This document shows, piece after piece, positions 20,247 through 63,804 of a stretch of DNA of 64,000 nt (the first letter of the stretch is position 1; each line of letters opens with the position of its first letter). Source of the DNA: an uncultured virus (IMG/VR IMGVR_UViG_3300025949_000021). Lineage: Duplodnaviria > Heunggongvirae > Uroviricota > Caudoviricetes. The stretch lies in IMG/VR virus record IMGVR_UViG_3300025949_000021; one strand, given 5' to 3'. The translations under genes and the position numbers were made by a program. Below the pieces are notes generated by a model. It worked only from the letters and a program-made list of their open reading frames with translations, had not been told where the DNA came from and made no database searches.

Positions 20247-21155
20247 ATGAGCATAACCCTCCTGCAACTTATCCAGCAGACATGCCAAGAATTGGCGCTT
20301 GATTCGCCTTCTCTTGTAGTCGGCAGTCAGGACCAGCAAACCGTGCAGTTGTTTGCATTGCTGAACCGCCATGGTCATGACCTCACTCGAAATTTTGAGT
20401 GGGAGAAATTGGATAAGCAATATTTGCTGACGACTGTTGCCTACAATCTTGCAGGTAACACAGTTGCAGGATCGGCCATCATCACGGGAATTCCAAGCAC
20501 GGCGAATCTCTCTGTTAATTTTGGAGTAACGGGCTTAGGTATTAACCCATTTGCTCAAATTCTAAGTATTGATTCCGCTACGCAAGTAACGATGGATCAG
20601 CCTGCAACAATGACTCAGAGTCAGACATTGCAGTTTTCTCAGGTTGGCTATCCACTTCCTAGTGACTGGCTAAAGCAAATTCCGCAAACAGAGTGGGATC
20701 GTACAAATAGATGGCCTCTGATGGGGCCTAAATCGCCGCAGGAGTGGCAATCTTATAAATCTGGTGTCGTATATGCTGGCCCACGCGAACGCTTCCGTAT
20801 TCAGGCTAACGCGATCCAGATTAGCCCGCCACCTCCTAATGCTTTGATCTTTGCCTACGAGTATATTTCAGCTAATTGGGCATATAGCGCAACTAATGTA
20901 GGAAAACCTTATTTCACTGCGGATACTGATACTTGCATTTACGATGACTCTCTTATGGTCGCCGGTCTAAAACTTAGATGGATGCAAGCTAAAGGCTTAG
21001 ATTATTCGTTTAATGCTGCTGAATATGGCGCATTGCTTCAAGCGTGTATGGCCCAAGACAAGAGCGCACCTAAGCTTAGCCTATCCCCAGTATTTGGTGA
21101 AATCCTCATGACAGAATGGAACGTGCAGGATGGAAATTGGCCGGGCGGTAACTAA
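20247..21155 (+). CDS. Head-tail adaptor (tail tubular A-like)
   Basis: TLLQLIQQ.C.EL N-terminus, YPLPSDW; position. Confidence 0.7.
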   Translation: MSITLLQLIQQTCQELALDSPSLVVGSQDQQTVQLFALLNRHGHDLTRNFEWEKLDKQYLLTTVAYNLAGNTVAGSAIITGIPSTANLSVNFGVTGLGINPFAQILSIDSATQVTMDQPATMTQSQTLQFSQVGYPLPSDWLKQIPQTEWDRTNRWPLMGPKSPQEWQSYKSGVVYAGPRERFRIQANAIQISPPPPNALIFAYEYISANWAYSATNVGKPYFTADTDTCIYDDSLMVAGLKLRWMQAKGLDYSFNAAEYGALLQACMAQDKSAPKLSLSPVFGEILMTEWNVQDGNWPGGN

Positions 21156-22675
21156 TGGCAACAGCATCTAAGAATCTCCCCGCTCCGGTAGGTGGCCTTA
21201 ATGACCGAGATTCATTGCAGGATATGCCGCCACAGGATGCGGTTATTCTTGAAAACTGGTTTCCTTATCCTTCTCAAGTCGGCATCCGAAAGGGCTGTAC
21301 AAATTGGGCAACTGGCTTTTCATCTACTGTCGAAACGGTTGTTGATTATGCGCCCCCAACAGGAAATATTAAGCTGTTCGCTGCTTCGGCTGGAAATATC
21401 TACGATGTAACATCCTCTGGTGCAATTGGTGCACCTGTTGTTACAGGACAGATTGGCAATCGCTGGCAAGATGCGGCGATTACAACGCCAGGAGGTAATT
21501 TTCTTTACCTCTTCAATGGAGTTGATAAGCCGCAACTTTATAACGGCACAACATGGACCGCAATTGATGGAGCGAGCACGCCAGCGATTACAGGTGTCAC
21601 TACTACACTTCTAGTTCAAGGCTGCTTATTTAAAAATCGTCTTTGGATGGTAGAAACCAATGCATTGCGAGCTTGGTATCTACCGGTCAATTCGATTGGA
21701 GGCGCAGCAAATCAATTTGATCTTGGTTCGGTATTTAGAAAAGGCGGTTATTTAGTAGCCATTTCTGCTTGGACCATTGATGCAGGTGACGGTGCAGATG
21801 ACCATTTGGTTTTTGTATCATCAAATGGCGAGTTTGCTGTTTATAGCGGAACTGATCCATCAACAGCAGCTACATTCCAGCTTGTCGGTGTTTATACAAT
21901 TGGCCGTCCTATTGGTCGCCGTTGCTGCACTAAATTAGCAGGCGATATTCTAGTGATGACAGAAGAGGGGCTATACCCTTTAAGTAAAGGTCTTCTCTCA
22001 GCATCTATTGATAAGCGTGTTTCTATTACAGACAAAATACAGAATGGCATTTCTGCCGCTGTAACGCAATACAAGAACAATTTCGGATGGGTTCCTCTTC
22101 TGTTCAACAGCTTGAATATGGTGATTCTAAATGTACCAGCAGGTAATGGGCAGAATTTCCAATATGTACAAAATACGATTACCGGAGCCTGGGCAAAATT
22201 CACGGCATGGAACGCTAGTAGTTGGCGCGATACATCTGCCGGTTTGTACTATGGCAATCAAAATTCTGTCCAGTTAGCTTGGGTAGGATCAACTGACAAT
22301 AGTTCGCAGATTGTTGCTGATGCGCTCCCATCGTTCCAAACTTTCGGTTCGAGCGCGCAGCGAAAATACTTCACAATGGTAAAGCCGTATCTAACAACTA
22401 CTGGCATTCCATCAATTGTGTACGGTCTCAATATTGATTACATGATTTCAGATGTGACAGGCGCTTTTACCTATACGCCGCCTTCTGGCATGATTTGGGG
22501 TCAAATGTTTTGGGGCTCGATGTTTTGGGGTGGTGGTCAACGGTCTTTTACAAGTTGGAAAACCGTTGGTGATTGGGCTCAATCAGCAGCTTTGCGAATT
22601 AAAGTCCAAGGGAATGCAGGGGATGTTTACTGGCAAGCGACAGATTATCTTTATCAGAAGGGCGGGATTCTTTAA
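21155..22675 (+). CDS. Tail nozzle/stabilisation protein (P22 gp10-like)
   Basis: LPAPVGGLN.RD start; beta-rich 506 aa. Confidence 0.75.
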   Translation: MATASKNLPAPVGGLNDRDSLQDMPPQDAVILENWFPYPSQVGIRKGCTNWATGFSSTVETVVDYAPPTGNIKLFAASAGNIYDVTSSGAIGAPVVTGQIGNRWQDAAITTPGGNFLYLFNGVDKPQLYNGTTWTAIDGASTPAITGVTTTLLVQGCLFKNRLWMVETNALRAWYLPVNSIGGAANQFDLGSVFRKGGYLVAISAWTIDAGDGADDHLVFVSSNGEFAVYSGTDPSTAATFQLVGVYTIGRPIGRRCCTKLAGDILVMTEEGLYPLSKGLLSASIDKRVSITDKIQNGISAAVTQYKNNFGWVPLLFNSLNMVILNVPAGNGQNFQYVQNTITGAWAKFTAWNASSWRDTSAGLYYGNQNSVQLAWVGSTDNSSQIVADALPSFQTFGSSAQRKYFTMVKPYLTTTGIPSIVYGLNIDYMISDVTGAFTYTPPSGMIWGQMFWGSMFWGGGQRSFTSWKTVGDWAQSAALRIKVQGNAGDVYWQATDYLYQKGGIL

Positions 22676-23088
22676 TGGTTATCATAGAACAGCATCCAGC
22701 TTTCTACGAATTCATTAACCATATCTTGAAAGTAAAATTTACTCCTGAAAATGCAAAAGTTATCGCTTCTGTAACACAAGATTGTCAGATAATGGGGGTA
22801 ACAGCATTTTCACGATTTTCTGAACACAATTGTGAGTTGAGTGTAGCTAGTTCTACCCCTCGCTTCATGACTAAAGAGTATTTACGGGCTGTATTTCATT
22901 ATCCGTTCATAACGTGCGGTAAGCGAAGAATCACGGCAATTATTGAAGACGACAATCATCAGGCTCAAGAAATTGACAGGCGACTAGGTTTTGTCTATGA
23001 GGCCACATTGAAGCATTGGTATGGCGAAAAAGATGGAATCGTAATGCGCATGTTGAATGATGAATGCACTTGGATCAAGGATAAATAA
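22675..23088 (+). CDS. GNAT-fold acetyltransferase-like protein
   Basis: RRITA.I...N......RRLGF..E..L pattern; typical podovirus position. Confidence 0.75.
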   Translation: MVIIEQHPAFYEFINHILKVKFTPENAKVIASVTQDCQIMGVTAFSRFSEHNCELSVASSTPRFMTKEYLRAVFHYPFITCGKRRITAIIEDDNHQAQEIDRRLGFVYEATLKHWYGEKDGIVMRMLNDECTWIKDK

Positions 23089-23948
23089 TGCGATTGCTTA
23101 ATCGAGACGGATACGACGCTACAGGCCGTCGCTTATATTACAAAGATGCCCCAGATCCCGCCCCTGCTCCAGATTATAAAGGCGCTGCGGAACAAACTGC
23201 TCAGGGGAATATTGAGGCGGCGCGAGCAGCAGCAAAAGCAAACCGTGTAAATACATATACTCCATATGGAAGCATCACTTATGCTCAGCCAAATTCTAGC
23301 GATCCTGACCAATGGAGCGCCAATGTCACGCTTGACCCTACACAGCAAAAACTGCTCGATCAGCAAAACCTAACAAGTTTGAATCTGGCTGGCTTGCAAA
23401 ACTCGGCATATGGGCGGGTTAATGATGCATTGAATGCTCCATATGCAGCGACATATGACCCAACTAAGGCAACCAATACAGCGTATGAATCGCTGATGAC
23501 ACGCCTGAATCCCCAGTATGAACAACAGCAATCCCAATTGGACCAGCGCCTGGCAAATCAAGGCATTACCTTGGGTTCGGAGGCTTGGCGAAATGCTCAA
23601 AATCAATTTGGTCAAACCAGAAACGATGCGCAAACACAAGCAGCTTTACAAGCTATTAATCTTGGAATGCAACAACAGCAACAACAATACGGCCAAGAAT
23701 CCACTAATCGTAATAATCCTCTAAATGAATTGAATGCAATTCGTACAGGATCACAAGTTACAAACCCATCGCAGATTAATGTTGCGCAACAAGGCCAAAC
23801 CGCAGGCGCGAACTATCTTGGAGCGGCACAAGGTCAAGCAGGATACGATCAAAGCATTTACAACGCTGGTGTAGGTAGCGCAAATGCAGGGAACTCGGCA
23901 ACGGCTGGCCTAGCTGGCGCAGCAATCGGCGCGGCGGCTTTGTTCTGA
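23088..23948 (+). CDS. Internal virion/ejection protein with N-terminal leader
   Basis: PAPAPDY.GAA..TA..N...NRVN.YTPYG; Gln/Ala-rich; hydrophobic C-terminus. Confidence 0.75.
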   Translation: MRLLNRDGYDATGRRLYYKDAPDPAPAPDYKGAAEQTAQGNIEAARAAAKANRVNTYTPYGSITYAQPNSSDPDQWSANVTLDPTQQKLLDQQNLTSLNLAGLQNSAYGRVNDALNAPYAATYDPTKATNTAYESLMTRLNPQYEQQQSQLDQRLANQGITLGSEAWRNAQNQFGQTRNDAQTQAALQAINLGMQQQQQQYGQESTNRNNPLNELNAIRTGSQVTNPSQINVAQQGQTAGANYLGAAQGQAGYDQSIYNAGVGSANAGNSATAGLAGAAIGAAALF

Positions 23949-24592
23949 TGGACATTGATTTAATTGATGCTTTAACTCCAGCAATGGTTAATGCAGGACA
24001 TAGGGTTCTGCAAATCCATCGTTTTGCACAATCAGATGTTGAGCATGTAAGGCGCTTGGAAAGATGGGCCGATTTTCCCCTTAATTCAAATGTGATCGAC
24101 TTGGGTAGTGGAACAGGCGAAGTTGCCAGAATATTGCAAAGAAAACGCCCTGATTTATTTTTCACACTGGTAAACATCAGCGAAGTTCAGCTTAGATACT
24201 CACCTAAAAACTGCAAATGGATTCATGGTGATTTTTTAAAAGTTAATGAAAGATCAGGCTTATATGATGGAGCGATGTTTTGTTTCTCTATCGGCCATGA
24301 AGATCATTCGCAAGCATTGAAAGAAGCCGCTAGGTTGCTCAGAATTGGAGGCGTTCTTTTCATCTATGACATGGTAAGGATAAGTGGATCTAATGAATCA
24401 ATGGAGTCAGTGGAATACACCGTTTTAAGCAGGAATGAACTTGAACAAATAGCCATTGAAAGCGGACTTAAACTAGATCTTTACATAGAACCTAAAGACT
24501 CTGGTGAATATGGAAAATCAGTTCTTGGGGAAGATTATGATTCAGTGTTTGACGGTACAATTCCTGCTATTTGGAGAATGATTAAATGCTAA
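23948..24592 (+). CDS. Class I SAM-dependent methyltransferase
   Basis: VIDLGSGTG, GDF, EAARLLR.GG.LFIYD motifs. Confidence 0.9.
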   Translation: MDIDLIDALTPAMVNAGHRVLQIHRFAQSDVEHVRRLERWADFPLNSNVIDLGSGTGEVARILQRKRPDLFFTLVNISEVQLRYSPKNCKWIHGDFLKVNERSGLYDGAMFCFSIGHEDHSQALKEAARLLRIGGVLFIYDMVRISGSNESMESVEYTVLSRNELEQIAIESGLKLDLYIEPKDSGEYGKSVLGEDYDSVFDGTIPAIWRMIKC

Positions 24593-25281
24593 AGAAAGCA
24601 TTGCAGTTCTCAGGCGGGAAAGACTCTCTTGCATGCCTCTATTTGCTGGAACCTATTTGGAATGAGTTACTAGTGGTTTGGGGAAACACTGGCGCAGCCT
24701 ATCAGGAAACTATTGAGTTGATGGAGAAAGTTAAAAATCTCGTTCCACACTTTCAAGAAGTGAAAAGCGATCAACCATCTTACATTGAAAGCTACGGTTT
24801 CCCTTCTGATGTTTTGGCAATTCGCAATACAAATTTCGGTCATATAGTGCATGGTACAGAAGGCAGAAAATTTACCGATTATCTATCGTGCTGCAATGCG
24901 AATATCTGGCAACCACTTGCTAAAGCATGTGAAGGGATGGAAGTAATCTATCGCGGTCAGCGGTCAGAAGATGAAAAAAAAGGCCCAGTAAAAAGCGGAG
25001 ATGTGATCAATGGAATTCAATACATTTTCCCCATAGAAAACTGGTCAACGGAACAGGTTAAAAAATATCTCGGTGAAAAACTTCCTGAGTATTATTCGCA
25101 AGAAAAATCATCCCATGATTGCTGGAGCTGCACAGCATATTTAGAAGATAATCTGGAGCGCATTTCCAAGCTTCCGAACGAGAAAAAAGAGTATGTCGAA
25201 TCAGTGTTGATCGACATGCGCGATGCGATTAAACAAGACTTAAACCAATTGGATGAGGTAATAAATGGCATTCACTACTAA
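24586..25281 (+). CDS. PAPS/APS-reductase-family PP-loop protein with CC...CxxC
   Basis: FSGGKDS, NTG, CC, RGQR.E, FPI.NW, DCWSC. Confidence 0.9.
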   Translation: MLKKALQFSGGKDSLACLYLLEPIWNELLVVWGNTGAAYQETIELMEKVKNLVPHFQEVKSDQPSYIESYGFPSDVLAIRNTNFGHIVHGTEGRKFTDYLSCCNANIWQPLAKACEGMEVIYRGQRSEDEKKGPVKSGDVINGIQYIFPIENWSTEQVKKYLGEKLPEYYSQEKSSHDCWSCTAYLEDNLERISKLPNEKKEYVESVLIDMRDAIKQDLNQLDEVINGIHY

Positions 25282-26647
25282 TACCGCAAGTTTTGGGTCT
25301 GGTGATATCGCAACGGAACAAGCACAGCTAACGCGTCAACAACAACTTGCTCAGGCTTTAGCGCAACAAGCACAAGCCCCATTGCAGTCTCAGCCGACTC
25401 CGCCTGGAGGTTATGCAATACCAATTGGTAAAGGCGAAGTCTGGGGGAAAATCGGTCAGGCATTGGCATCGGCCTATGCAACAAAAGCAACCGCTGATAA
25501 AGAAAAAGATTTTAATCAGAATAAACAGGCAAAAATTGCCGAGGCGCTTGGAAACTATGACAAATTGCGCACAGGTACACCGGCGCAAGACGTAAATATC
25601 TATGGCACAGAGCCAGATCAACCGACACAAGGAGCGATGCCAGCAGTAGCGCCTAACCCTCGCGGCGCATCTCTTGGTTTGATTAGTTCCGGCGTCCCTG
25701 AATTGCAGCAATTCGGCATGCAGTCTTTCTTGGCGCAAAAGGGTCCAGAATCCTTGTTCGATAAAATTGCCCCTAAAGATTACACGCCTCAAAGTGTGCA
25801 GAAATTTGTTCAAACCCAAAATCCAGCGGATCTTGTGGCTGTCAGAAAGCAAGAATTCCTTAATACTGGTGGCGGTCACGTCGCCGTAGACCCTTATGCT
25901 TCGACGCCTGGGCAAGTAATACAAAATACAGGAAGCCCAGCAAAAGACCTTCTTATTCAAGATACTCAAGGTAATTGGGTCGCCAATACTCCATTGGTTG
26001 CAGTTAAGAAGGATATCGCAAAGTCTGGAGCTACAAATGTTCAAGTTAAGACAGATGTGAAAACTGGTGAAAGCCTAGCATCTCAAGTTGGGCCAATGAT
26101 GAAAGAATCTACTTTGGCGGCTGAGGGTGCGGTAAAACAAGCACAGGCAGCAGACCAAATTCTGGGGGCATTGAGTGGACCTGCTTATACAGGGCCCGGC
26201 GCAAATGTTCGCCTAAAAGGTGCACAAATCGCCGATACACTTGGCGTTGGCGGTAAGGATACAGCTGAAAAGATCGCAAATACTCGCACAGCATTGCAAA
26301 ATCTGTCGCAATTGACTTTGCAAGGTCGCCAACAAATGCGCGGTCAGGGTGCTATTACAGAAGGCGAAAGCGCACTTGCTCAACGTGCGGTGTCTGGCGA
26401 TATTGATTTGACTGCTAACGAAATCAAGCAATTGGCAAATGCGGCTAAACGTGCAGCGGCATTCCAATATCAGGAGCATCAACGCAAGTTGCAGGTCATG
26501 CAGAATAATCCTAATTTGAGCGGCATTGCGCCGTTCTATCAAGGTCCAGCTATGCAAGATTCCGTACCAGCACAACAGCCTGTACAAGCGCCGCAAGCAC
26601 TTGCAAAACGTCTTGTTTATGATCCAGCTACAGGGAGTTTCCGCTAA
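25265..26647 (+). CDS. Internal virion/ejection protein
   Basis: Gln/Ala-rich, GAITEGE motif, position. Confidence 0.7.
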   Translation: MAFTTNTASFGSGDIATEQAQLTRQQQLAQALAQQAQAPLQSQPTPPGGYAIPIGKGEVWGKIGQALASAYATKATADKEKDFNQNKQAKIAEALGNYDKLRTGTPAQDVNIYGTEPDQPTQGAMPAVAPNPRGASLGLISSGVPELQQFGMQSFLAQKGPESLFDKIAPKDYTPQSVQKFVQTQNPADLVAVRKQEFLNTGGGHVAVDPYASTPGQVIQNTGSPAKDLLIQDTQGNWVANTPLVAVKKDIAKSGATNVQVKTDVKTGESLASQVGPMMKESTLAAEGAVKQAQAADQILGALSGPAYTGPGANVRLKGAQIADTLGVGGKDTAEKIANTRTALQNLSQLTLQGRQQMRGQGAITEGESALAQRAVSGDIDLTANEIKQLANAAKRAAAFQYQEHQRKLQVMQNNPNLSGIAPFYQGPAMQDSVPAQQPVQAPQALAKRLVYDPATGSFR

Positions 26648-28467
26648 TGGCTCAACAAGTTGAAGTTCCTGGTGTAGGAGTTCTTGAATTTCCTGACAAT
26701 ATGCCGCAAGAGGCTATTGCATCTGCGATTCAGAAGAATTTTCCTCAGATTCATAATCAGCCACAACAGCAAGAGGTGCCACGTTCTAATGAAATGGGGC
26801 CATCTCTTGATATTGGTGCGCTTGGTCCTTTGCAAACTCAGCAGCCTCCAGAACAAGTGCAAGTTCCACCTCCTCAACAAGGAGATGCTAGCTTTGGCAA
26901 TCGCTTTGTTACTGGTCTTACAGACCCTATTCATGGTGGCGCTCAAGCATTGACGCACATGCTTCCAGAGGGTTTGGTGAATGCGGTTAACCGTGGCACT
27001 CAAGCCGTAAATGAAGCTCCAATTATCGGTCCTATTACTAAAGCACTTGGCATGACGCCTGCAAATTCTGCGCAGATTGATGCAGGAATTCAGCAACGCG
27101 AACAAGCATTGCAAGCTGCACGTAAAGATGCTGGTCAAGAAGGTATTGATTGGGCGCGCATGGGCGGAAATGTACTTTCAGCGGCTCCTATGGCTGCGGC
27201 AATTCCTCCTGGCGCATCTTTATTGCCACGCATGCTGTCTGGCGCTCTAAGCGGAACGTTGGGTGGTGCGGTTATGCCGGTCACTGAGGGAGATTATGGC
27301 GATCAGAAAACGCGCCAAATGGCTCTTTCTGCTGGATTAGGCGCTGTTGCTGGACCTGCTACAAGCGCAGTTGCAAGTATGGTTAAGCCGAATACATCGC
27401 CAGAAGTCAAAGCATTGATGGCGCAAGGCATAACTCCTACTCCAGGTCAAATTTTAGGTGGTACAGTAGCCAAGACAGAAGATAAGCTAACCAGCTTGCC
27501 ATTGATTGGCGACATGATTTCAGGTGCGCAGCGTCGAGGTGTAGAAGATTTCAACCGTGCAGCATATGCAAGGGCGTTAGACCCTATTGGAGCAGCTGTT
27601 CCAAAAGAAGTCGGGCGAGAAGGTATTGAAGGCGTTAAGTCGGCGCTTACAAAGTCTTATGATGATCTACTCCCAAAACTACAATTCAAAGCAGATCAGC
27701 AGTTTTCTAGTGAATTACAAAATCTAACTGGACTTGTGCAAAATGCCCAAACCAATCCTCAAGTTGCTCAGCAATTCAACAAAGTTTTGCAAAATGATGT
27801 TCTAAGCAGGATTAGCAAATCTGGAGCAATGGATGGCCGTAACTTTAAAGATATGGAATCTGCTCTGGGACAAAGCATCAAGAAATATTCCGGCAGTTCA
27901 AACCCTGCTGATCAAGATATTGCCGCTGCTTTGGGGGAAGTATTAAAGTCTGCCCGAGAAACATTGTCTCGGTCAAACCCGAATTATGCAGATCAACTAA
28001 GTAAGATTAATCAAGGGTATGCAAACTTTGTTCGGTTACGGGATGCCGCGAGCAAGGTTGGCGCAGATGAAGGTATTTTCACTCCTGCTCAATTACAAAA
28101 CGCTGTTCGTAGTATGGATAAATCCGCTGGAAAAGGAAGATTTGCAACTGGCGATGCTTTAATGCAGGATCTTAGCGAAGCAGGCAAGACCGTATTGGGT
28201 AGCAAGTATCCCGATTCTGGCACTGCTGGACGATCAATGGTAGGGGCAGGGGCAGCAGGTGGACTAGCAATGATTAATCCTAAATTGCTTGCAGCCGCAT
28301 TAGCTGCAACACTTCCTTATACGAAAACTGGCGGCAAAATCACTGCGGCTGCATTGACTAAACGCCCGGAAAGTTTCAAAGCGATTTCTGATGCATTACG
28401 CGCTAGTGCTCCTGCGATTGCGGGTAGCCTTCCATTGGCGATAGGAACGCAAAACCAGTCGCCATAA
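26647..28467 (+). CDS. Large internal virion/ejection protein
   Basis: VLEFPD.M start; G/A-rich membrane-like segments; TPGQ, PDSGTA.R. Confidence 0.7.
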   Translation: MAQQVEVPGVGVLEFPDNMPQEAIASAIQKNFPQIHNQPQQQEVPRSNEMGPSLDIGALGPLQTQQPPEQVQVPPPQQGDASFGNRFVTGLTDPIHGGAQALTHMLPEGLVNAVNRGTQAVNEAPIIGPITKALGMTPANSAQIDAGIQQREQALQAARKDAGQEGIDWARMGGNVLSAAPMAAAIPPGASLLPRMLSGALSGTLGGAVMPVTEGDYGDQKTRQMALSAGLGAVAGPATSAVASMVKPNTSPEVKALMAQGITPTPGQILGGTVAKTEDKLTSLPLIGDMISGAQRRGVEDFNRAAYARALDPIGAAVPKEVGREGIEGVKSALTKSYDDLLPKLQFKADQQFSSELQNLTGLVQNAQTNPQVAQQFNKVLQNDVLSRISKSGAMDGRNFKDMESALGQSIKKYSGSSNPADQDIAAALGEVLKSARETLSRSNPNYADQLSKINQGYANFVRLRDAASKVGADEGIFTPAQLQNAVRSMDKSAGKGRFATGDALMQDLSEAGKTVLGSKYPDSGTAGRSMVGAGAAGGLAMINPKLLAAALAATLPYTKTGGKITAAALTKRPESFKAISDALRASAPAIAGSLPLAIGTQNQSP

Positions 28468-36438: not shown

Positions 36439-36879
36439 CTAAAATGGAATATCGTCGTCCATATCAGAAAAGTTTGGTGCTGTGCGGGCGGCAGCAGGTT
36501 GGCGATCTTGCTGATCTTGACGTGCGGGCGCTTGGCCACCATCAGAACGCCCTCCGAGCATTTGCATGCTGTCAGCGATGATTTCAGTAGTGTATTTTTC
36601 AACGCCGTCTTTGTCTGTCCATTTACGTGTTTGTAACTTTCCTTCGACGTAGACAGAACTTCCTTTTTTCAGATACTGCCCTGCAATTTCGGCAAGTTTT
36701 CTATAAAAAGTTACGCGCACCCACTCTGTCAATTCTTTTTTCTCGCCTGTTGTCTTGTCTTTCCATGATTCTGTGCATGCGATTGTAATATTGGTTACTG
36801 CCTCACCGTTTGCCATATATCTAGTTTCAGGATCGCGTCCAAGATTACCAATTCCAATGAATTTATTTACGTTAGCCAT
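36439..36879 (-). CDS. ssb: Single-stranded DNA-binding protein
   Basis: VNK...GNLGRDPE...KKGS.VYVEG.L.TRKW; DDDIPF tail. Confidence 0.97.
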
Positions 36880-37351
36880 GTATGCGACCTTCCTTTCTGA
36901 TGATTATGCTTACTGTGCGCTGACTAACTCCATATTGACTAGCCAGATCTGCTTGCCTCACTTTTCCAGGAATATACTTCTCCCTAATTTCATAAACTTG
37001 TTTACTGGTAAGTTTATGGTTTTGATGTTTTTCTCCAAAACTTCTATTAGTGTGGTTTGAGTTGGCCCGGCCCTTTTTCACCATGTCAATAAAATTTGAT
37101 ATAACTGTACCAAGCATTAAATGATTAGGATTGCAACATGAAGGATTGTCACATGAGTGCTGCACTTGCATGCCATTTGGAATTGGCCCAAATGTTATTC
37201 CCCAAGAAATTCTGTGCGCGGTTGTGTAAATTTTGTTGCGCCTAACGTTCCCATACCCGGATGGCTTTTTCGCGCCAAGCCATAGCCAGCACTCTGTTTT
37301 CCCTTTCTTTTCTACTTTTCTCCAAAATCTTTCGTCGCTAGTCATGGCCAT
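36872..37351 (-). CDS. HNH homing endonuclease
   Basis: RFW.KV...CW.W...AHR...[13 protein letters not shown]. Confidence 0.92.
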
Positions 37352-37965
37352 TACTTAATCTCCTGGAAAATTTGCTCAACTAAATTCAAGAATTCATCAC
37401 GACGATTAGCAAGTCGTGTTAGCTCATCTGCGCAATCATCCTTGGTTAACCGATGGACGATCAATTGCTTATCTTTAGGAAATTCAGAGCAATAGCTGAC
37501 GAAATCTACATAGACGCGCTCTGTACAATCCAGATGCCCAATAAACTGCCAGCGGTATGCAGGATCAAAACTACCGCGTCGCAACGTAGCATAATGGACT
37601 GGCGCAATGACACTTTTTATCTCAATAACGCCGTCATGGTTTATAAGCCCATCTGGCGAATCGCCATAGAGACCGCAATCAAAGAATCCGCCGTTTTGCA
37701 CATCCACAAAGTTTTCTTCTTCGTAAAGCATGCGCGCAATCGGCTCCTGCTCATGGCCGCGTTCGGTGTGGTCATTTGTGAAGTTCACCTCAGATTTGTT
37801 TCCAGTGATCCGCTCTAAGGCAATCTGCAATGCATAACGTTTTGCAGGATCTCCAAATGCCTTTCCTTCATTCGCCATGAAACAGGCGAAGTTAGAGGCA
37901 GTCGCTTTTCCGGTTCGCAGCGCTTGCCAAGCCTCTGTATTTTGCTCTACATTATGGAAAATCAT
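37351..37965 (-). CDS. YqaJ/lambda-exonuclease-family protein
   Basis: Q...W...R.G..TAS, G...EP.AR, SPDG, EIK. Confidence 0.92.
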   Translation of the reverse strand: MIFHNVEQNTEAWQALRTGKATASNFACFMANEGKAFGDPAKRYALQIALERITGNKSEVNFTNDHTERGHEQEPIARMLYEEENFVDVQNGGFFDCGLYGDSPDGLINHDGVIEIKSVIAPVHYATLRRGSFDPAYRWQFIGHLDCTERVYVDFVSYCSEFPKDKQLIVHRLTKDDCADELTRLANRRDEFLNLVEQIFQEIK

Positions 37966-41014: not shown

Positions 41015-41743
41015 ATGAATGAGTTGGCTCTTTTCGCAGGCGCTGGCGGAGGCATACTCGGCGGAACCCTGCTCGGATGGCGAACCGTTTGCGCAGTTGA
41101 ACGTGATGCCTACGCCGCACAAGTTCTGGCGCAACGACAAAACGATGGAATTCTCGCGCCTTTCCCAATTTGGTCTGACGTTACGACTTTTGACGGAAGA
41201 CCATGGCGCGGCATTGTTGACATCGTTTCTGGAGGATTCCCCTGCCAGGACATCAGCGTCGCTGGCAAAGGCGCAGGAATCGAAGGGGGAAGAAGCGGGA
41301 TGTGGAAGCATTTTGCAAGAATCATTTGCGAAGTTAAGCCAAGACGGGTCTATGTGGAAAACAGCCCAGCACTCACTATTCGAGGACTTGGAGTCGTCCT
41401 TAGAGATTTGGCCTCGATGGGGTTCAATGCAAGATGGGGAGTGCTTTCATGCGCAGATGCCGGCGGAGTTCATTTACGAGAGCGAATCTGGATTGAAGCT
41501 ACCAACAATAGGGGCGAACGAAGGGAAGGGTTCAAGCAAAGACAGGTTTTTAGGTTCTCCAGATTTCCGTGGGGCAAAAATGTGCGAGGGATTGAGGACT
41601 TGCGAAACAGATCCGATTTACCTCAACCCCTTATTCGCAGAATTAACCATGATGTGGCCTTTGGGATGGACCGACTTAAAGCCATTGGAAACGGACAAGT
41701 TCCGCGAGTGGCAGCAGCAGCATGGGAAATCCTAAATGACTAA
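41015..41743 (+). CDS. DNA (cytosine-5) methyltransferase alpha chain, lacking motif IX
   Basis: LFAGAGG (I), GGFPCQD (IV), ENS (VI), RERIW (VIII), RLKAIGNG (X). Confidence 0.92.
   Translation: MNELALFAGAGGGILGGTLLGWRTVCAVERDAYAAQVLAQRQNDGILAPFPIWSDVTTFDGRPWRGIVDIVSGGFPCQDISVAGKGAGIEGGRSGMWKHFARIICEVKPRRVYVENSPALTIRGLGVVLRDLASMGFNARWGVLSCADAGGVHLRERIWIEATNNRGERREGFKQRQVFRFSRFPWGKNVRGIEDLRNRSDLPQPLIRRINHDVAFGMDRLKAIGNGQVPRVAAAAWEILND
41019..41735 (+). CDS. Overlapping +1-frame ORF, putative beta chain carrying motif IX
   Basis: 238 open codons; LNPLFAELTMMWPLGWTD resembles motif IX. Confidence 0.7.
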   Translation: MSWLFSQALAEAYSAEPCSDGEPFAQLNVMPTPHKFWRNDKTMEFSRLSQFGLTLRLLTEDHGAALLTSFLEDSPARTSASLAKAQESKGEEAGCGSILQESFAKLSQDGSMWKTAQHSLFEDLESSLEIWPRWGSMQDGECFHAQMPAEFIYESESGLKLPTIGANEGKGSSKDRFLGSPDFRGAKMCEGLRTCETDPIYLNPLFAELTMMWPLGWTDLKPLETDKFREWQQQHGKS

Positions 41744-42296
41744 GTGCAAAATCTGCCGAGAAGAGTTCATTAAGCGCAGCATCTCGCACAAAGTATGCAG
41801 CAATGTTGACTGTGCTTTAGCCTGGATCGAACAAGAGCGCGCCAAAAAGCTAAAAAAGAAACAGATGGCAGACCGGAAAGAAACGAAGCTAAAGTTGGAC
41901 AAGTTAAAGACACGTTCAGATTACATCAAGGAGACACAGATTGCCTTCAATGCGTATATCCGCACTAGGGACCGCGATAAGCCATGCATTTCCTGCGGTG
42001 TTACTCTCGCACGGGAAGCAATTGGAGGCGGGTTTGACTGTGGACATTATAGATCGGTTGGCAGTGCGCCCCACTTACGGTTTCATTTCGATAATGCTCA
42101 TGGACAATGCAAAAAGTGCAACCGATACGGAAGCGGGATGGGGGTGGATTATAGAATTGGCCTCATTCCAAGAATCGGAGTGGATCGTGTTGAATCAGTT
42201 GAAAAGAACACTGCTCCCGGTAAATGGACAATCCCTGAGCTTATCGAAATGAAGAAGAAGTTTCAACAGATGAAAAAGGAACTAGAAAATGAGTAA
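41736..42296 (+). CDS. ninG: NinG/Rap endonuclease
   Basis: PCISCG..DCGHYRSVGSAPHLRF..NAHGQC..CN. Confidence 0.93.
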   Translation: MTKCKICREEFIKRSISHKVCSNVDCALAWIEQERAKKLKKKQMADRKETKLKLDKLKTRSDYIKETQIAFNAYIRTRDRDKPCISCGVTLAREAIGGGFDCGHYRSVGSAPHLRFHFDNAHGQCKKCNRYGSGMGVDYRIGLIPRIGVDRVESVEKNTAPGKWTIPELIEMKKKFQQMKKELENE

Positions 42297-49008: not shown

Positions 49009-49350
49009 TGCCTTACGAAACAAGGCACTTAATGGGAGCATGGCAGTACGGACTTTGTATTACTTGCTATGCAGTTGCACGCAGAGTCCTCCCATTAGGT
49101 GAACAAGATTAGCTTATGGGACAAACCAGAGGGCAATCTTAAATGTGGTTGAGAATCTCGGCCCCGCGTATCAATCTTGGATCGCCTATTCAATACGCAG
49201 GTAAGCACAAGTAATAATGGTAGGGACGCCTATTCGGTAGGGCACGCGGCTGTAACCCGCAGGTCGGCTAGTCCGTGAAGGTTCGAATCCTTCTCCTTCC
49301 ACCAAGTTTCTAGTAAAATACGTAAGAGGGCGCAACCGTCCGAGGATTAA
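49009..49350 (+). ncRNA. Array of structured RNA modules (49030-49097, 49096-49188, tRNA, conserved 3' hairpin)
   Basis: taatgggag/ctcccatta; taggtga/tcgccta with caagatt/aatcttg; junctions match 10081-10428. Confidence 0.7.
49219..49304 (+). tRNA. tRNA-Tyr(GUA), long variable arm, encoded CCA
   Basis: gcgg-CTGTAAC-ccgc anticodon arm; gaagg-TTCGAAT-ccttc T arm; ACCA end; one T-T mismatch in acceptor stem. Confidence 0.85.
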
Positions 49351-60366: not shown

Positions 60367-61887
60367 ATGGCAACAGCATCTAAGAATCTTCCGGCTCCTG
60401 TAGGAGGTCTTAATGATAGGGATTCGTTACAAGATATGCCGCCTCAAGATGCGGTTATTCTTGAAAACTGGTTTCCTTATCCTTCCCAAGTAGGTATCCG
60501 AAAAGGCTGTACAAATTGGGCAACTGGTTTTTCTTCCACCGTAGAAACTGTTGTGGATTATGCGCCTCCGACAGGGAATATTAAGCTGTTCGCCGCTTCG
60601 GCTGGGAATATCTACGATGTAACATCCTCCGGTGCAATTGGTGCACCTGTAGTAACAGGGCAGATTAGCAACCGCTGGCAAGATGCTGCGATTACAACGC
60701 CAGGAGGTAGTTTTCTTTACCTATTTAATGGGGTGGATAAGCCACAGCTTTATAACGGCACAACTTGGACGGCAATTGATGGAGCAAGCACGCCTGCAAT
60801 TACAGGTGTTACTACTACACTTCTTGTTCAAGGCTGTTTATTTAAAAATCGTCTTTGGATGGCGGAAACAAATGCATTACGTGCTTGGTATCTTCCGGTC
60901 AATTCGATTGGCGGTGCAGCAAACCAATTTGATCTTGGTTCGGTATTTAGAAAAGGTGGTTTTTTAGTTGCTATTACAGCATGGACTATTGATGCAGGCG
61001 ACGGCGCAGATGACCATTTGGTTTTTGTATCGTCAAATGGAGAGTTTGCTGTTTATAGCGGTACAGACCCATCAACAGCCGCGACATTTCAGCTTGTCGG
61101 TGTTTATACAATTGGCCGTCCTATCGGCCGCCGTTGCTGCACTAAATTGGCGGGCGATATCCTAGTGATGACAGAAGAAGGGTTATACCCATTAAGCAAA
61201 GGTCTCCTTTCGGCAACAATTGATAAACGAGCATCTATTACAGACAAAATACAAAATGGCATTTCTGCTGCTGTAACTCAATACAGGAATAACTTTGGGT
61301 GGATACCACTTTTGTTCAATAATATGAATATGGTTATCCTAAATGTACCTGCTGGCAATGGGCAGAATTTCCAATACGTACAAAATACGATTACCGGAGC
61401 ATGGGCAAAATTCACAGCCTGGAATGCCACTAGCTGGCGTGATACATCCGCAGGTTTGTATTATGGGAATCAAAATTCTGTTCAATTGGCGTGGGTAGGA
61501 TCAACGGATAATAGTTCTCAGATTGTTGCTGACGCACTGCCATCGTTCCAAACCTTTGGTTCGAGCGCGCAGCGTAAATACTTCACGATGGTAAAGCCAT
61601 ATCTTACAACGACTGGTATCCCGTCTATTGTCTACGGACTTAATATTGATTACATGATTTCAGATGTGACCGGCGTATTTTCATATACAGCACCATCTGG
61701 GATGATATGGGGGCAGATGTTTTGGGGGTCTATGTTTTGGGGTGGCGGACAACGATCTTTTACAAGTTGGAAAACGGTTGGGGATTGGGCGCAATCTGCT
61801 GCTTTACGCATCAAAGTGCAAGGTAATGCAGGGGACGTTTATTGGCAGGCTACTGATTATCTTTATCAGAAGGGCGGGATTCTTTAA
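60367..61887 (+). CDS. Tail nozzle/stabilisation protein
   Basis: Homologue of 21155-22675. Confidence 0.75.
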   Translation: MATASKNLPAPVGGLNDRDSLQDMPPQDAVILENWFPYPSQVGIRKGCTNWATGFSSTVETVVDYAPPTGNIKLFAASAGNIYDVTSSGAIGAPVVTGQISNRWQDAAITTPGGSFLYLFNGVDKPQLYNGTTWTAIDGASTPAITGVTTTLLVQGCLFKNRLWMAETNALRAWYLPVNSIGGAANQFDLGSVFRKGGFLVAITAWTIDAGDGADDHLVFVSSNGEFAVYSGTDPSTAATFQLVGVYTIGRPIGRRCCTKLAGDILVMTEEGLYPLSKGLLSATIDKRASITDKIQNGISAAVTQYRNNFGWIPLLFNNMNMVILNVPAGNGQNFQYVQNTITGAWAKFTAWNATSWRDTSAGLYYGNQNSVQLAWVGSTDNSSQIVADALPSFQTFGSSAQRKYFTMVKPYLTTTGIPSIVYGLNIDYMISDVTGVFSYTAPSGMIWGQMFWGSMFWGGGQRSFTSWKTVGDWAQSAALRIKVQGNAGDVYWQATDYLYQKGGIL

Positions 61888-62300
61888 TGGTTGTCATAGA
61901 ACAGCATCCAGCTTTCTACGAGTTCATTAATCATATTTTAAAAGTAAAATTCACCCCCGAAAACGCAAAAGTTATCGCATCTGTAACACAAGATTGTCAG
62001 ATAATGGGAGTGACAGCATTTTCACGGTTTTCTGAACATAATTGTGAATTGAGCGTTGCAAGTTCAACGCCTAGATTCATGACTAAAGAGTATTTACGAG
62101 CTGTATTTCATTATCCGTTCATAACGTGCGGTAAGCGAAGAATCACGGCAATTATTGAAGATGACAATCATCGTGCACAAGAAATTGATAAGCGGTTAGG
62201 TTTTGTCTATGAGGCTACATTGAAGAATTGGTATGGCGAAAAAGACGGAATTGTTATGCGCATGTTGAATGATGAATGTACTTGGATCAAGGATAAATAA
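61887..62300 (+). CDS. GNAT-fold protein
   Basis: Homologue of 22675-23088. Confidence 0.75.
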   Translation: MVVIEQHPAFYEFINHILKVKFTPENAKVIASVTQDCQIMGVTAFSRFSEHNCELSVASSTPRFMTKEYLRAVFHYPFITCGKRRITAIIEDDNHRAQEIDKRLGFVYEATLKNWYGEKDGIVMRMLNDECTWIKDK

Positions 62301-63160
62301 TGCGATTGCTTAATCGAGACGGATACGACGCTACAGGCCGTCGCTTATATTACAAAGATGCGCCAGATCCTGCGCCTGCTCCTGATTATAAAGGTGCTGC
62401 TGAGCAAACTGCTCAAGGCAATATTGAGGCAGCTCGTGCAGCGGCAAAAGCGAACCGCGTAAACACATATACACCCTACGGCAGTATTACTTATAACCAA
62501 CCTAATTCTGCTGATCCTGATCAATGGAATGCTAACGTAACTCTTGATCCTACCCAGCAAAAATTACTTGACCAGCAAAATCTGACAAGCTTGAATTTAG
62601 CTGGTCTACAAAACTCCGCATATGGCCGCGTCAATGATGCATTGAATGCCCCATATGCAGCGACATATGATCCGACTAAGGCAACCAATACAGCGTATGA
62701 ATCGCTGATGACTCGCCTAAATCCTCAGTATGAGCAACAGCAATCACAATTGGATCAGCGCTTGGCAAATCAAGGTATTACTCTAGGCTCTGAAGCATGG
62801 CGTAATGCTCAAAATCAGTTCGGTCAAACTCGTAATGATGCGCAAACGCAAGCAGCTTTGCAGGCGATCAACCTTGGAATGCAACAACAGCAACAGCAAT
62901 ACGGCCAAGAATCGACTAATCGCAATAATCCATTGAATGAATTGAATGCAATTCGAACAGGATCGCAGGTTACAAACCCATCGCAGATTAATGTTGCTCA
63001 ACAAGGCCAAACCGCAGGGGCTAACTATCTTGGGGCTGCACAAGGACAGGCCGGTTACGATCAAAGCATTTACAACGCTGGTGTAGGTAGCGCAAATGCA
63101 GGGAACTCGGCAACGGCTGGCTTGGCTGGTGCAGCGATCGGCGCGGCGGCTTTGTTCTGA
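62300..63160 (+). CDS. Ejection protein with leader
   Basis: Homologue of 23088-23948. Confidence 0.75.
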   Translation: MRLLNRDGYDATGRRLYYKDAPDPAPAPDYKGAAEQTAQGNIEAARAAAKANRVNTYTPYGSITYNQPNSADPDQWNANVTLDPTQQKLLDQQNLTSLNLAGLQNSAYGRVNDALNAPYAATYDPTKATNTAYESLMTRLNPQYEQQQSQLDQRLANQGITLGSEAWRNAQNQFGQTRNDAQTQAALQAINLGMQQQQQQYGQESTNRNNPLNELNAIRTGSQVTNPSQINVAQQGQTAGANYLGAAQGQAGYDQSIYNAGVGSANAGNSATAGLAGAAIGAAALF

Positions 63161-63804
63161 TGGACATTGATTTGATTGATGCTTTAACCCCAGCAATGGT
63201 TAATGCAGGACATAGGGTGCTACAAATTCACCGGTTTGCATCATCAGATGTTGAGCATGTAAGACGCTTGGAAAGATGGGCAGATTTCCCGTTAAATTCG
63301 AATGTAATTGATATGGGTAGTGGTACTGGAGAGGTTGCCAGGATACTAGGAAGAAAACGGCCTGACTTGTTTTTCACTTTGGTTAACCTAAGCGAGGTTC
63401 AATTACGATATTCTCCAAAAAACTGCAAATGGATTCATGGCGACTTTCTAAATGTTGATGAAAAAAACGGCGTCTTTGATGCAGTTATGTTTTGCTTCTC
63501 CATTGGTCACGAAGACCACGAAGCCGCATTGAAAGAAGCCTGCCGATTACTTAAAGTTGGTGGCGTTTTGTTTGTATATGACATGGTGAGAGTAAGCGGC
63601 TCTAATGAATCAATGGCTTCTGTTGAATACACGGTTCTTTCTAGAGGTGAATTTGAATCTATCGCAGTCGATAATGGATTCAAACTTGATCTTTACATTG
63701 AGCCAAAAGATTGCGGAGAATATGGAAAATCTGTTTTAGGAGATGCATTTGAAGAAGTTTTCAATGGGACAATTCCTGCTATTTGGAGAATGATTAAATG
63801 CTAA
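63160..63804 (+). CDS. Class I SAM-dependent methyltransferase
   Basis: Homologue of 23948-24592. Confidence 0.9.
   Translation: MDIDLIDALTPAMVNAGHRVLQIHRFASSDVEHVRRLERWADFPLNSNVIDMGSGTGEVARILGRKRPDLFFTLVNLSEVQLRYSPKNCKWIHGDFLNVDEKNGVFDAVMFCFSIGHEDHEAALKEACRLLKVGGVLFVYDMVRVSGSNESMASVEYTVLSRGEFESIAVDNGFKLDLYIEPKDCGEYGKSVLGDAFEEVFNGTIPAIWRMIKC

Follow-up and report, generated by a model that had tools for sequence, protein, structure and literature searches.

A PP-loop enzyme gene tracks the C-terminal end of the ejection protein encoded directly upstream in podophage-like virion operons

Described relatives of the gene block

The closest described system to the genes treated here is the late block of Bcep22-like phages. 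Bcep22 encodes, in this order, an acyl-CoA N-acyltransferase (gp69), a virion structural protein (gp70), a 3'-phosphoadenosine 5'-phosphosulfate (PAPS) reductase (gp73), and a virion protein (gp74). Podophage genes labelled ‘PAPS reductase’ or ‘CysH’ are routinely called auxiliary metabolic genes or morons. We analysed a variant of the Bcep22-like block in a stretch of 64,000 nucleotides (nt) from an uncultured virus (IMG/VR record IMGVR_UViG_3300025949_000021), which we call the window. The variant consists of genes for a GNAT-fold protein, an ejection or internal virion protein, a class I S-adenosylmethionine (SAM) methyltransferase, and an Fe-S PP-loop enzyme of the PAPS_reduct family. Among the relatives that we surveyed, the PP-loop gene tracks the C-terminus and not the N-terminus of the ejection protein, and this subfamily of enzymes is probably not of the CysH type and is bound to one structural gene.

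The gene arrangement as such is already known from Bcep22-like phages, and the window is a variant of it with a separate methyltransferase gene. Both have the order GNAT, virion protein, PAPS_reduct within the virion operon, their PP-loop proteins are 37–39 per cent identical, and the GNAT is found by tblastn. The window differs in the position of the separate methyltransferase gene, between the ejection and PP-loop genes, and in a 19-aa N-terminal extension on the ejection protein. Further, the window phage measures ~38 kb against ~62 kb, and there is no DarB-like giant protein in the window block. No phage record matched the block in a blastn search. The window holds a tandem pair of related podophage-like units (1900-32700 and 40000-64000), and the block is present in each.

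In the passages that deal with these genes, the papers on JC1, CSP3, and Burkholderia prophages describe them as morons for sulfate reduction or gene regulation (PMC9144972, PMC10269572, PMC2920897). Table 6 of the JC1 paper reports mass spectrometry of virions, in which the ejection homologue gp64 was detected with nine unique peptides; in the same virion data, the PAPS reductase gp65 and the acetyltransferase gp63 were undetected (PMC9144972). In the portions of the literature on these phages, on the S74 domain, and on ejection that our searches covered, we found no link between a PAPS reductase and the end of an ejection protein.

P22 offers a second comparison. By position and size, the 137-, 286-, 460-, and 606-aa proteins that follow a gp10-like protein in the window presumably resemble P22 gp14, gp7, gp20, and gp16, and we take the window GNAT to stand at the place of the non-virion gene 14. 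To our knowledge, the P22 operon has no enzyme genes. There was no sequence match to P22 proteins, and homologues of the ejection protein were listed only in Mx8 and in Brucella, Rhizobium, and Sulfitobacter phages. The relevant portion of one paper mentions weak similarity of this lineage’s proteins to P22 ejection proteins (PMC10386132).

The PP-loop gene and the two ends of the ejection protein

An earlier note on this DNA, made from the sequence alone, had raised the question of whether the pair of methyltransferase and PP-loop enzyme is linked to ejection genes elsewhere. Our survey starting from the PP-loop gene covered eighty-two loci (eighty from IMG/VR plus Bcep22 and MW202711). In thirty-eight, the upstream genes include a GNAT, a window-type ejection protein, or both. 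Forty-four show a parallel order, in which a ~580-aa phrog_3287 protein, a ~120-aa phrog_22172 protein (no Pfam match in the two tested), and a ~310-aa protein precede the PP-loop gene, and the gene that follows it encodes an internal virion protein bearing a transglycosylase domain. The ~310-aa protein matched phrog_4287 ‘DNA ejection protein’ in 8/9 loci tested, and we refer to it as family 2; the window protein belongs to family 1 (phrog_6121). The two families are unconnected by phmmer, and both carry the PP-loop gene. Linkage was tight in all informative loci: the PP-loop gene lies directly behind the ejection gene, mostly with overlapping stop and start codons (L005, L042, and L055 have no usable upstream open reading frame (ORF)). 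Among methyltransferase-linked loci, it lies directly behind the ejection gene in all nineteen (19/19). A 532-aa fusion of ejection and PP-loop proteins in L005 was rejected as an arginine-rich, out-of-frame artefact of high-GC DNA.

The ejection protein of the window ends in an uncharged hydrophobic tail (ATAGLAGAAIGAAALF), and it is with this kind of tail that the enzyme gene downstream co-varies. In all ejection proteins linked to a PP-loop gene, the tail is hydrophobic and rich in Gly, Ala, and Ser, and its last residue is hydrophobic (…GAAIGAAALF in the window, …GAGIMAF for the gp70 reading frame of Bcep22). Among close relatives that lack the gene, many have a C-terminal Peptidase_S74 domain, and others show lysine or arginine near the end (…FGAR, …SLFGR, …GKMF). 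We pooled 178 distinct ejection proteins from the two divergent families, de-duplicated and with known downstream DNA, and sorted them by type of end (Table 1). A tail was called bare when there was no Peptidase_S74 domain and no lysine or arginine in the last twelve residues; four loci with a methyltransferase between the genes or fused to the PP-loop gene were scored accordingly. In the family-2 survey that started from the ejection gene, all thirty-three proteins with a PP-loop gene had bare tails, and the twenty-two without it comprised eighteen S74-like and four arginine-ending proteins.

Table 1. Gene found behind the ejection gene, by type of ejection-protein C-terminus
Type of end	n	PP-loop gene	Haem-oxygenase-like	DUF7694	None/other
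Bare tail	112	104	2	2	4
S74-bearing	48	0	0	0	48
Basic tail	18	1	1	0	16

Trees of each family were built with FastTree from the core regions, with the tails removed. The presence of the PP-loop gene changes at least nine times on each family tree. Among independent pairs, a bare tail went with the PP-loop gene in four to five of nine in family 1 and in four of five in family 2, whereas the opposite direction turned up in a single one of the 200 random pairings for family 1 and never for family 2. When both families are combined, 8–9 informative pairs point in one direction (two-sided sign test, P ~0.004–0.008 by our own arithmetic).

Peptidase_S74 (PF13884) scored above cut-off at the C-terminus of the ejection protein in all four cases tested. 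The domain begins at an SD.R.K or SD...K motif, exactly at the end point of the short forms. Proteins that are otherwise nearly identical diverge at this point: the S74-bearing protein of L110 and the PP-loop-linked protein of L129 have their first thirty-two residues in common. The SD.R.K start is compatible with the Ser-Lys dyad of the family. Endosialidase work places S74 self-cleavage before the serine, which would leave the same kind of tail. Relatives of the window protein share this domain with endosialidases and tail fibres and have it directly behind the tail; unlike those systems, the window protein has no S74, the PP-loop gene takes the place behind the tail, and the domain in the relatives sits on an internal or ejection protein. 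S74 is usually described on tail fibres and spikes, and we found it on internal or ejection proteins of two families (L110:3095-4129, L084:3486-4496, L277, L293, and forty-four other loci). One S74-bearing clade encodes an uncharacterised protein of 96–123 aa, without a Pfam match, after the ejection gene and before the homologue of the window’s 460-aa gene (L111:4499-4834 and sixteen more loci).

The N-terminus behaves differently. The earlier note had described an invariant 19-aa extension and had suggested, beside packaged DNA or a small molecule as targets, a RiPP-like leader with tailoring enzymes (RiPPs, ribosomally synthesized and post-translationally modified peptides). The extension itself is real: an AAGGA Shine-Dalgarno sequence precedes the ATG at 23088, the sole other in-frame start before PAPAPDY is a TTG at codon 3, and most family-1 relatives start with MGK a few residues ahead of a PP(A/P)PDY motif. 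Its invariance is unremarkable, as the whole protein shows three non-synonymous against ninety-three synonymous codon differences between the units. A nucleotide-level constraint on the leader was rejected as well; the first 57 nt of the gene are identical between units, and other 60-nt windows are equally invariant. We then counted the family-1 proteins for which both the motif and a methionine ahead of it could be located. Of those with a PP-loop gene, 34/39 start with MGK and have no extension and 5/39 are extended; the extension is commoner among those without the gene (14/50), so we do not take it for a leader of the PP-loop enzyme.

A minority of the relatives have similar extensions (e.g. 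L121, L087, L124, and L089), and the window’s closest GNAT, that of L121 (55 per cent identity), accompanies an extended ejection protein. Both points would suit a RiPP-like leader, recruiting the GNAT, the methyltransferase, and the PP-loop enzyme. L121 has no PP-loop gene, however, and family-2 ejection proteins with a PP-loop gene start with MGK or MGG; with the counts above, a leader of this kind seems very improbable. We also considered the GNAT acylating the N-terminal glycine of MGK, in the manner of N-myristoylation, and rejected it on the MGK and MGG starts of family 2, which has no GNAT nearby.

The PP-loop enzyme, the methyltransferase, and the GNAT

The PP-loop protein matches Pfam PAPS_reduct (PF01507) at 1.1e-11, with 45.5 bits against a cut-off of 22.5. 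A protein search gave 539 matches at E ≤ 1e-5, a separate scan of viral DNA gave at least 283 encoding stretches, and tblastn found the protein in forty-three phage records (thirty-one Ralstonia, ten Burkholderia, one Aeromonas, and one uncultured). Residues G10, G11, D13, S14, C102, C103, C179, and C182 are invariant in an alignment of forty-four sequences, and in a profile search the CC and CxxC cysteines match those of the Mycobacterium tuberculosis adenosine 5'-phosphosulfate (APS) reductase 7lhr. The AlphaFold 2 (AF2) model has a predicted local distance difference test score (pLDDT) of 95.4, and the top twelve Foldseek matches are all PAPS/APS reductases (template modelling (TM) score 0.5–0.56, ~16 per cent identity). 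TtuA, QueC, and TilS appear at ranks 22–43, and GMP synthetase also follows the reductases. From its motifs we judge the protein to be a PP-loop enzyme that uses ATP and has an APS-reductase-like four-cysteine site, which putatively holds a [4Fe-4S] cluster.

The published annotation would make this a true APS/PAPS sulfonucleotide reductase that boosts host sulfur assimilation. The Pfam match, the reductases as nearest solved folds, and the aligned CC…CxxC cysteines agree with it, and comparison with solved CysH and APS reductases (2goy, 7lhr, 1sur, 2o8v, 6vpu) shows that the NTG/DTG nucleotide-binding and RGQR/GLRR segments align too. Nevertheless, several features separate the phage enzyme from these proteins besides its low identity to them. 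A C-terminal catalytic cysteine in an ECGLH-type end typifies CysH. The window protein has no cysteine after CxxC, and neither do 34/44 homologues; an ECGLH-type end is absent from all forty-four, including the ten with a cysteine after CxxC. Opposite the canonical phage SGGKDS, the CysH proteins of E. coli and V. vulnificus show a degenerate loop of SFGIQA-type residues. Scores against NCBIfam models fall far below the curated cut-offs (NF002537, 37.5 against 154; TIGR02055, 34.2 against 235.3; TIGR00434, 30.1 against 165.1; TIGR02057, 18.8 against 254.2). Because of the missing catalytic cysteine, the low CysH scores, and the canonical PP-loop, the protein is probably not a sulfonucleotide reductase, in support of the earlier note’s ‘not sulfur metabolism’, and we give a role in host sulfur assimilation hardly any credence. 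A few homologues (P0011, P0033, P0046, P0098, P0112, P0005) do have a cysteine among their last six residues, reminiscent of the flexible cysteine at the C-terminus of CysH.

A second alternative is late thiolation or another modification of phage DNA or tRNA, in the manner of DndC/SspD or TtuA/TtcA, completed by the methyltransferase. DndC, SspD, and BrxP belong to the PAPS_reduct family and combine a true PP-loop with an Fe-S cluster, and fusion to a methyltransferase is common in nucleic-acid modification pathways. The canonical PP-loop with its four-cysteine site, the Foldseek matches to TtuA, QueC, and TilS, a weak BrxP match over the PP-loop part (PADLOC, residues 6–75, E 2e-4), and the existence of methyltransferase fusions are all compatible with this idea. 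Against it, searches of NCBIfam and PADLOC at E ≤ 0.01 turned up neither a DndC nor an SspD model, the phage enzyme is far shorter (231 aa) and always follows an ejection gene, and the block has no partner genes; the neighbours at 20–30 kb are virion proteins, the rest of the window having been scanned in part for DndC/SspD partners. Moreover, the catalytic motifs of DNA methylases are missing from the methyltransferase, a canonical DNA methyltransferase is encoded separately in unit 2 (41015-41743), and nucleic-acid modification does not predict a link to the type of tail. We consider it improbable. With families assigned by hidden Markov model cut-offs, the protein falls outside CysH, DndC, and SspD as those families are defined.

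The methyltransferase matches Methyltransf_25 (7e-10, 39.9 bits against a cut-off of 27) and Methyltransf_11 (38.6 against 21.2), has SAM-binding motif I (VIDLGSGTG) at residues 49–57, and in its N-terminal part also matches phrog_424. A check of its sequence found neither (D/N/S)PP(Y/F/W) nor a PC dipeptide, in agreement with the earlier note, which had remarked on the missing DPPY/NPPY and PC motifs. Among NCBIfam models, methyltransferases that act on small molecules or proteins come closest, and the scores against all of them lie far below the cut-offs. All fifteen of the longer PP-loop homologues are fusions of a methyltransferase and PAPS_reduct. A separate methyltransferase gene was found only in the window and in L016 among the loci surveyed from the PP-loop gene, and the eighty family-1 loci surveyed from the ejection gene gave no methyltransferase match.

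That family-1 survey found a GNAT upstream in 75/80 loci and a PP-loop gene downstream in 8/80, and the GNAT is absent from the family-2 ejection loci that carry the PP-loop gene. The single coupled cassette of the earlier note does not hold up against these numbers. From the fusions, the distribution of the solo methyltransferase gene, and the frequency of the GNAT, we conclude that the methyltransferase is an add-on that depends on the PP-loop enzyme and that the GNAT is independent of it. In a tblastn search the GNAT was found in seventy-two phage records, against the forty-three with a PP-loop gene; these include Mx8, where the GNAT p53 adjoins the ejection homologue p54.

The GNAT-fold protein has a predicted acyltransferase fold. 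Its AF2 model (pLDDT 96) gave 453 matches in the PDB at E ≤ 0.001 with Foldseek, led by SpeG- and RimJ-type acetyltransferases (TM 0.62–0.78), and its Acetyltransf_3 score of 23.3 bits lies below the Pfam cut-off of 25.4. The acetyl-CoA pyrophosphate-binding loop of GNATs has the form Q/R-x-x-G-x-G/A, and none was recognisable in an alignment of twenty-six sequences of the family (~135–150 aa). That alignment shows full conservation of Y76, F78, N94, and G105 and almost full conservation of C131, close to the C-terminus.

A candidate role for the PP-loop enzyme and the genes around it

The place behind the ejection gene is occupied by other genes in some relatives. A gene for an ‘iron-containing redox enzyme’ (Haem_oxygenas_2, PF14518) overlaps the ejection stop codon in three loci (L087:4370-4981, L121:4247-4858, and L090:4286-4780), scoring above the Pfam cut-off in two of them. 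A ~100-aa DUF7694 protein stands in this slot, behind a bare hydrophobic tail, in two others (L089:4220-4531 and L102:4223-4528). Given that its GNAT is the closest to that of the window, L121 can be called the nearest sampled relative of the block, and it has a different slot enzyme. An acetyltransferase and an ‘oxidoreductase’ are mentioned for a roseophage group in the passage on these genes in one paper (PMC10149686); the latter may be another gene than Haem_oxygenas_2.

One hypothesis for the co-variation is that the PP-loop enzyme, assisted by the methyltransferase, is produced late, stays out of the virion, and has the ejection protein’s C-terminal tail as its target. This is the explanation we tentatively favour, with slightly less than an even chance of being right. 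For it speak the place of the gene, the co-variation and the independent pairs, the S74 boundary, the sequence features of the block, the motifs and fusions of the enzyme, and the JC1 virions, in which gp64 but neither gp63 nor gp65 was detected. Gene order, coupling, motif content, and co-variation are established here; the tail as substrate is our inference. The block holds three separately varying elements around one ejection protein. The GNAT-fold protein would be a standing non-virion companion of family-1 ejection proteins. The PP-loop enzyme would be made late from the ejection-gene transcript, by translational coupling to the ejection gene, and would work on the hydrophobic tail. The methyltransferase would be an accessory that acts with the PP-loop enzyme or on its product. 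Relatives may have alternatives for the same C-terminus, namely a fused S74 domain whose removal would leave a similar end, a Lys/Arg tail, or a haem-oxygenase-like or DUF7694 gene.

What the enzyme would do to the tail is speculative. PP-loop enzymes typically transfer an adenylyl group and release pyrophosphate, and activation of a carboxylate is a standard reaction of this kind, for which reason we favour adenylation of the terminal carboxylate, leading to an uncharged derivative. Where present, the methyltransferase would add a methyl cap, after which the tail might be retained or pass into a membrane at the appropriate moment. TtuA, a PP-loop enzyme with a [4Fe-4S] cluster, takes the C-terminal end of a protein into its active site and offers, by analogy, a precedent for such an enzyme handling a protein C-terminus. 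TtuA/TtuB structures (5b4e, 5gha) stand at Foldseek ranks 22–23; the likeness is modest in that the TM score is ~0.44, TtuA modifies tRNA, and TtuB ends in Gly-Gly where the phage tail is hydrophobic. In its most specific form, the hypothesis says that podophage ejection proteins have an enzymatically tailored C-terminus (an amide or thiocarboxylate, methyl-capped where there is a methyltransferase), and that the other slot enzymes, basic tails, and S74 domains are alternative controls on the timing of membrane entry. That version we find distinctly doubtful. A predicted complex of the PP-loop protein with 4Fe-4S, ATP, and ejection-protein residues 196–286 scored 0.00 against a mark of 0.32, in a run without controls, and is not used either way.

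Several points weigh against a tail-directed role. Modification of the tail is a proposal drawn from co-variation. Of the five surveys, three had the PP-loop gene as their starting point and so inflated the bare-tail/PP-loop cell of Table 1; the surveys begun from the ejection gene are the fair samples. Within a single family, the sign tests are not significant (median P 0.0625 in family 1 and 0.125 in family 2). Four bare tails have no extra gene behind them (L103, L106, L159, and L198), and one PP-loop-linked tail contains a lysine (L027). The PP-loop gene is optional even in close relatives, as the 8/80 loci show, and two records rated 100 per cent complete contain no PP-loop homologue anywhere: G002, which contains L102, has DUF7694 in the slot and G005 the haem-oxygenase-like gene. 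Furthermore, S74 cleavage should leave an ordinary free carboxylate, and the need to neutralise it is not obvious. Finally, the varied occupants fit a slot for tail-directed enzymes and also an insertion hot spot.

This last point leads to another explanation, in which the place behind the ejection gene is a permissive slot for accessory genes, the PP-loop enzyme and methyltransferase act on a host metabolite or another non-virion target, and the link to the tail is a by-product of ancestry and insertion sites. The optional PP-loop gene with its at least nine gains or losses per family tree, the unrelated occupants (Haem_oxygenas_2 and DUF7694), and the complete records without the gene all speak for it, as do the labels of moron or auxiliary metabolic gene in the sections of four papers that cover such genes (PMC9144972, PMC10269572, PMC2920897, PMC8477408). 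In one of these, the section concerned reports cysH annotated in pelagiphages though their SAR11 hosts are without assimilatory sulfate reduction (PMC8477408), which speaks against the accessory slot if the pelagiphage gene, possibly of another subfamily, is comparable. A free slot also fits poorly with the co-occurrence of the gene with S74 in 0/48 and with basic tails in 1/18 cases across two families, with informative independent pairs that run one way save for one in 200 random pairings, and with a PP-loop protein retained at 40–50 per cent identity where its neighbours have diverged beyond phmmer detection.

Further evidence against a free slot comes from the block itself. The four genes are coupled, as the earlier note had stated, and overlap their neighbours: the ORFs were as described, and the start and stop codons from the GNAT through the 460-aa gene overlap by 1, 1, 7, and 17 nt. 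There is no intergenic space within the block. Between 20 and 29 kb, we counted five promoter-like sites against 15.2 expected from shuffled sequence and six terminator-like sites against 9.1 expected, and such signals are absent from the flanks of the genes. The GC content at third codon positions of the enzyme genes (0.31–0.40) lies within the range of their neighbours (0.32–0.43). On these sequence features, the block is not an autonomous insert. We regard the accessory slot as unlikely, though with a real share of the probability.

If the tail is indeed matured by the PP-loop enzyme, a widespread annotation would be corrected, a large clade of uncharacterised PP-loop/Fe-S enzymes would gain a function, and a post-translational step, one with several interchangeable solutions, would come to light in how the DNA-ejection apparatus is assembled or acts. 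The DNA-ejection process is still poorly understood. If the C-terminus is tailored, this would be the first case of a virion protein with RiPP-style tailoring at that end.

The coordinates of the block and its neighbours are given in Table 2. On the plus strand, unit 1 encodes terminase, portal, and major head protein, then proteins of 188 aa, 302 aa (tail), and 506 aa, followed by the block and proteins of 460, 606, and 536 aa. The order of the 188-aa, 302-aa tail, and 506-aa proteins, GNAT, and ejection protein is kept in the loci of relatives, and the homologue of the 506-aa protein in MW202711 is labelled ‘phage stabilization protein’. The 460- and 606-aa proteins have no Pfam or PHROG match. 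The closest comparison record is a 38.3-kb virus, rated 100 per cent complete, with 58 per cent of sampled words in common with the window.

Table 2. Positions of the block, its parts, and its neighbours in the window
Feature	Position	Strand	Remarks
506-aa virion protein	21155..22675	+	phrog_5107; directly 5' of the block
GNAT-fold protein, 137 aa	22675..23088	+	phrog_4470 acyl-CoA N-acyltransferase, 3e-34
Ejection/internal virion protein, family 1, 286 aa	23088..23948	+	phrog_6121 virion structural protein, 1e-37
19-aa N-terminal extension	23088..23144	+	precedes PAPAPDY motif; real, against an MGK-start majority
C-terminal tail, uncharged and hydrophobic	23898..23945	+	co-varies with the downstream enzyme
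Class I SAM methyltransferase, 214 aa	23948..24592	+	Pfam Methyltransf_25/11
Fe-S PP-loop enzyme, PAPS_reduct family, 231 aa	24586..25281	+	PF01507
PP-loop SGGKDS, residues 9–14	24610..24627	+	in 42/44 homologues and 15/15 fusions
Cys102-Cys103	24889..24894	+	invariant; putative [4Fe-4S] ligands; align with CC of 7lhr
Cys179-x-x-Cys182	25120..25131	+	invariant; putative [4Fe-4S] ligands; align with CxxC of 7lhr
460-aa virion-module protein	25265..26647	+	next conserved gene after the slot; homologues downstream in relatives
606-aa virion-module protein	26647..28467	+	downstream of the 460-aa gene
GNAT, unit 2	61887..62300	+	97% amino-acid identity to unit 1
Ejection protein, unit 2	62300..63160	+	283/286 residues identical (99%)
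Methyltransferase, unit 2	63160..63804	+	84% amino-acid identity
PP-loop gene, 5' part, unit 2, 67 codons	63798..64000	+	cut by the window end; SGGKDS kept

The virion modules of the two units are 84–86 per cent identical at the DNA level. The block recurs in unit 2, offset by 39212 and with ~86 per cent DNA identity, up to the end of the window, and the methyltransferase and PAPS_reduct genes are thus retained in both units, as the earlier note had seen. Synonymous and non-synonymous codon differences between units number 31 and 4 for the GNAT, 75 and 34 for the methyltransferase, and 22 and 11 for the start of the PP-loop gene; together with the 93 and 3 of the virion protein, these counts point to purifying selection on all four genes, very strong on the virion protein.

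Other parts of the window contain genes of different kinds. A minus-strand block with genes for a single-stranded DNA-binding protein (SSB), an HNH endonuclease, and an exonuclease lies between the units (36439-37965). In the early region of unit 2, the canonical DNA methyltransferase gene (phrog_363, 7e-58) adjoins a NinG/Rap endonuclease gene (41736-42296). Unit 2 also carries a tRNA-Tyr (GTA) gene at 49219-49304, against no tRNA genes in unit 1.

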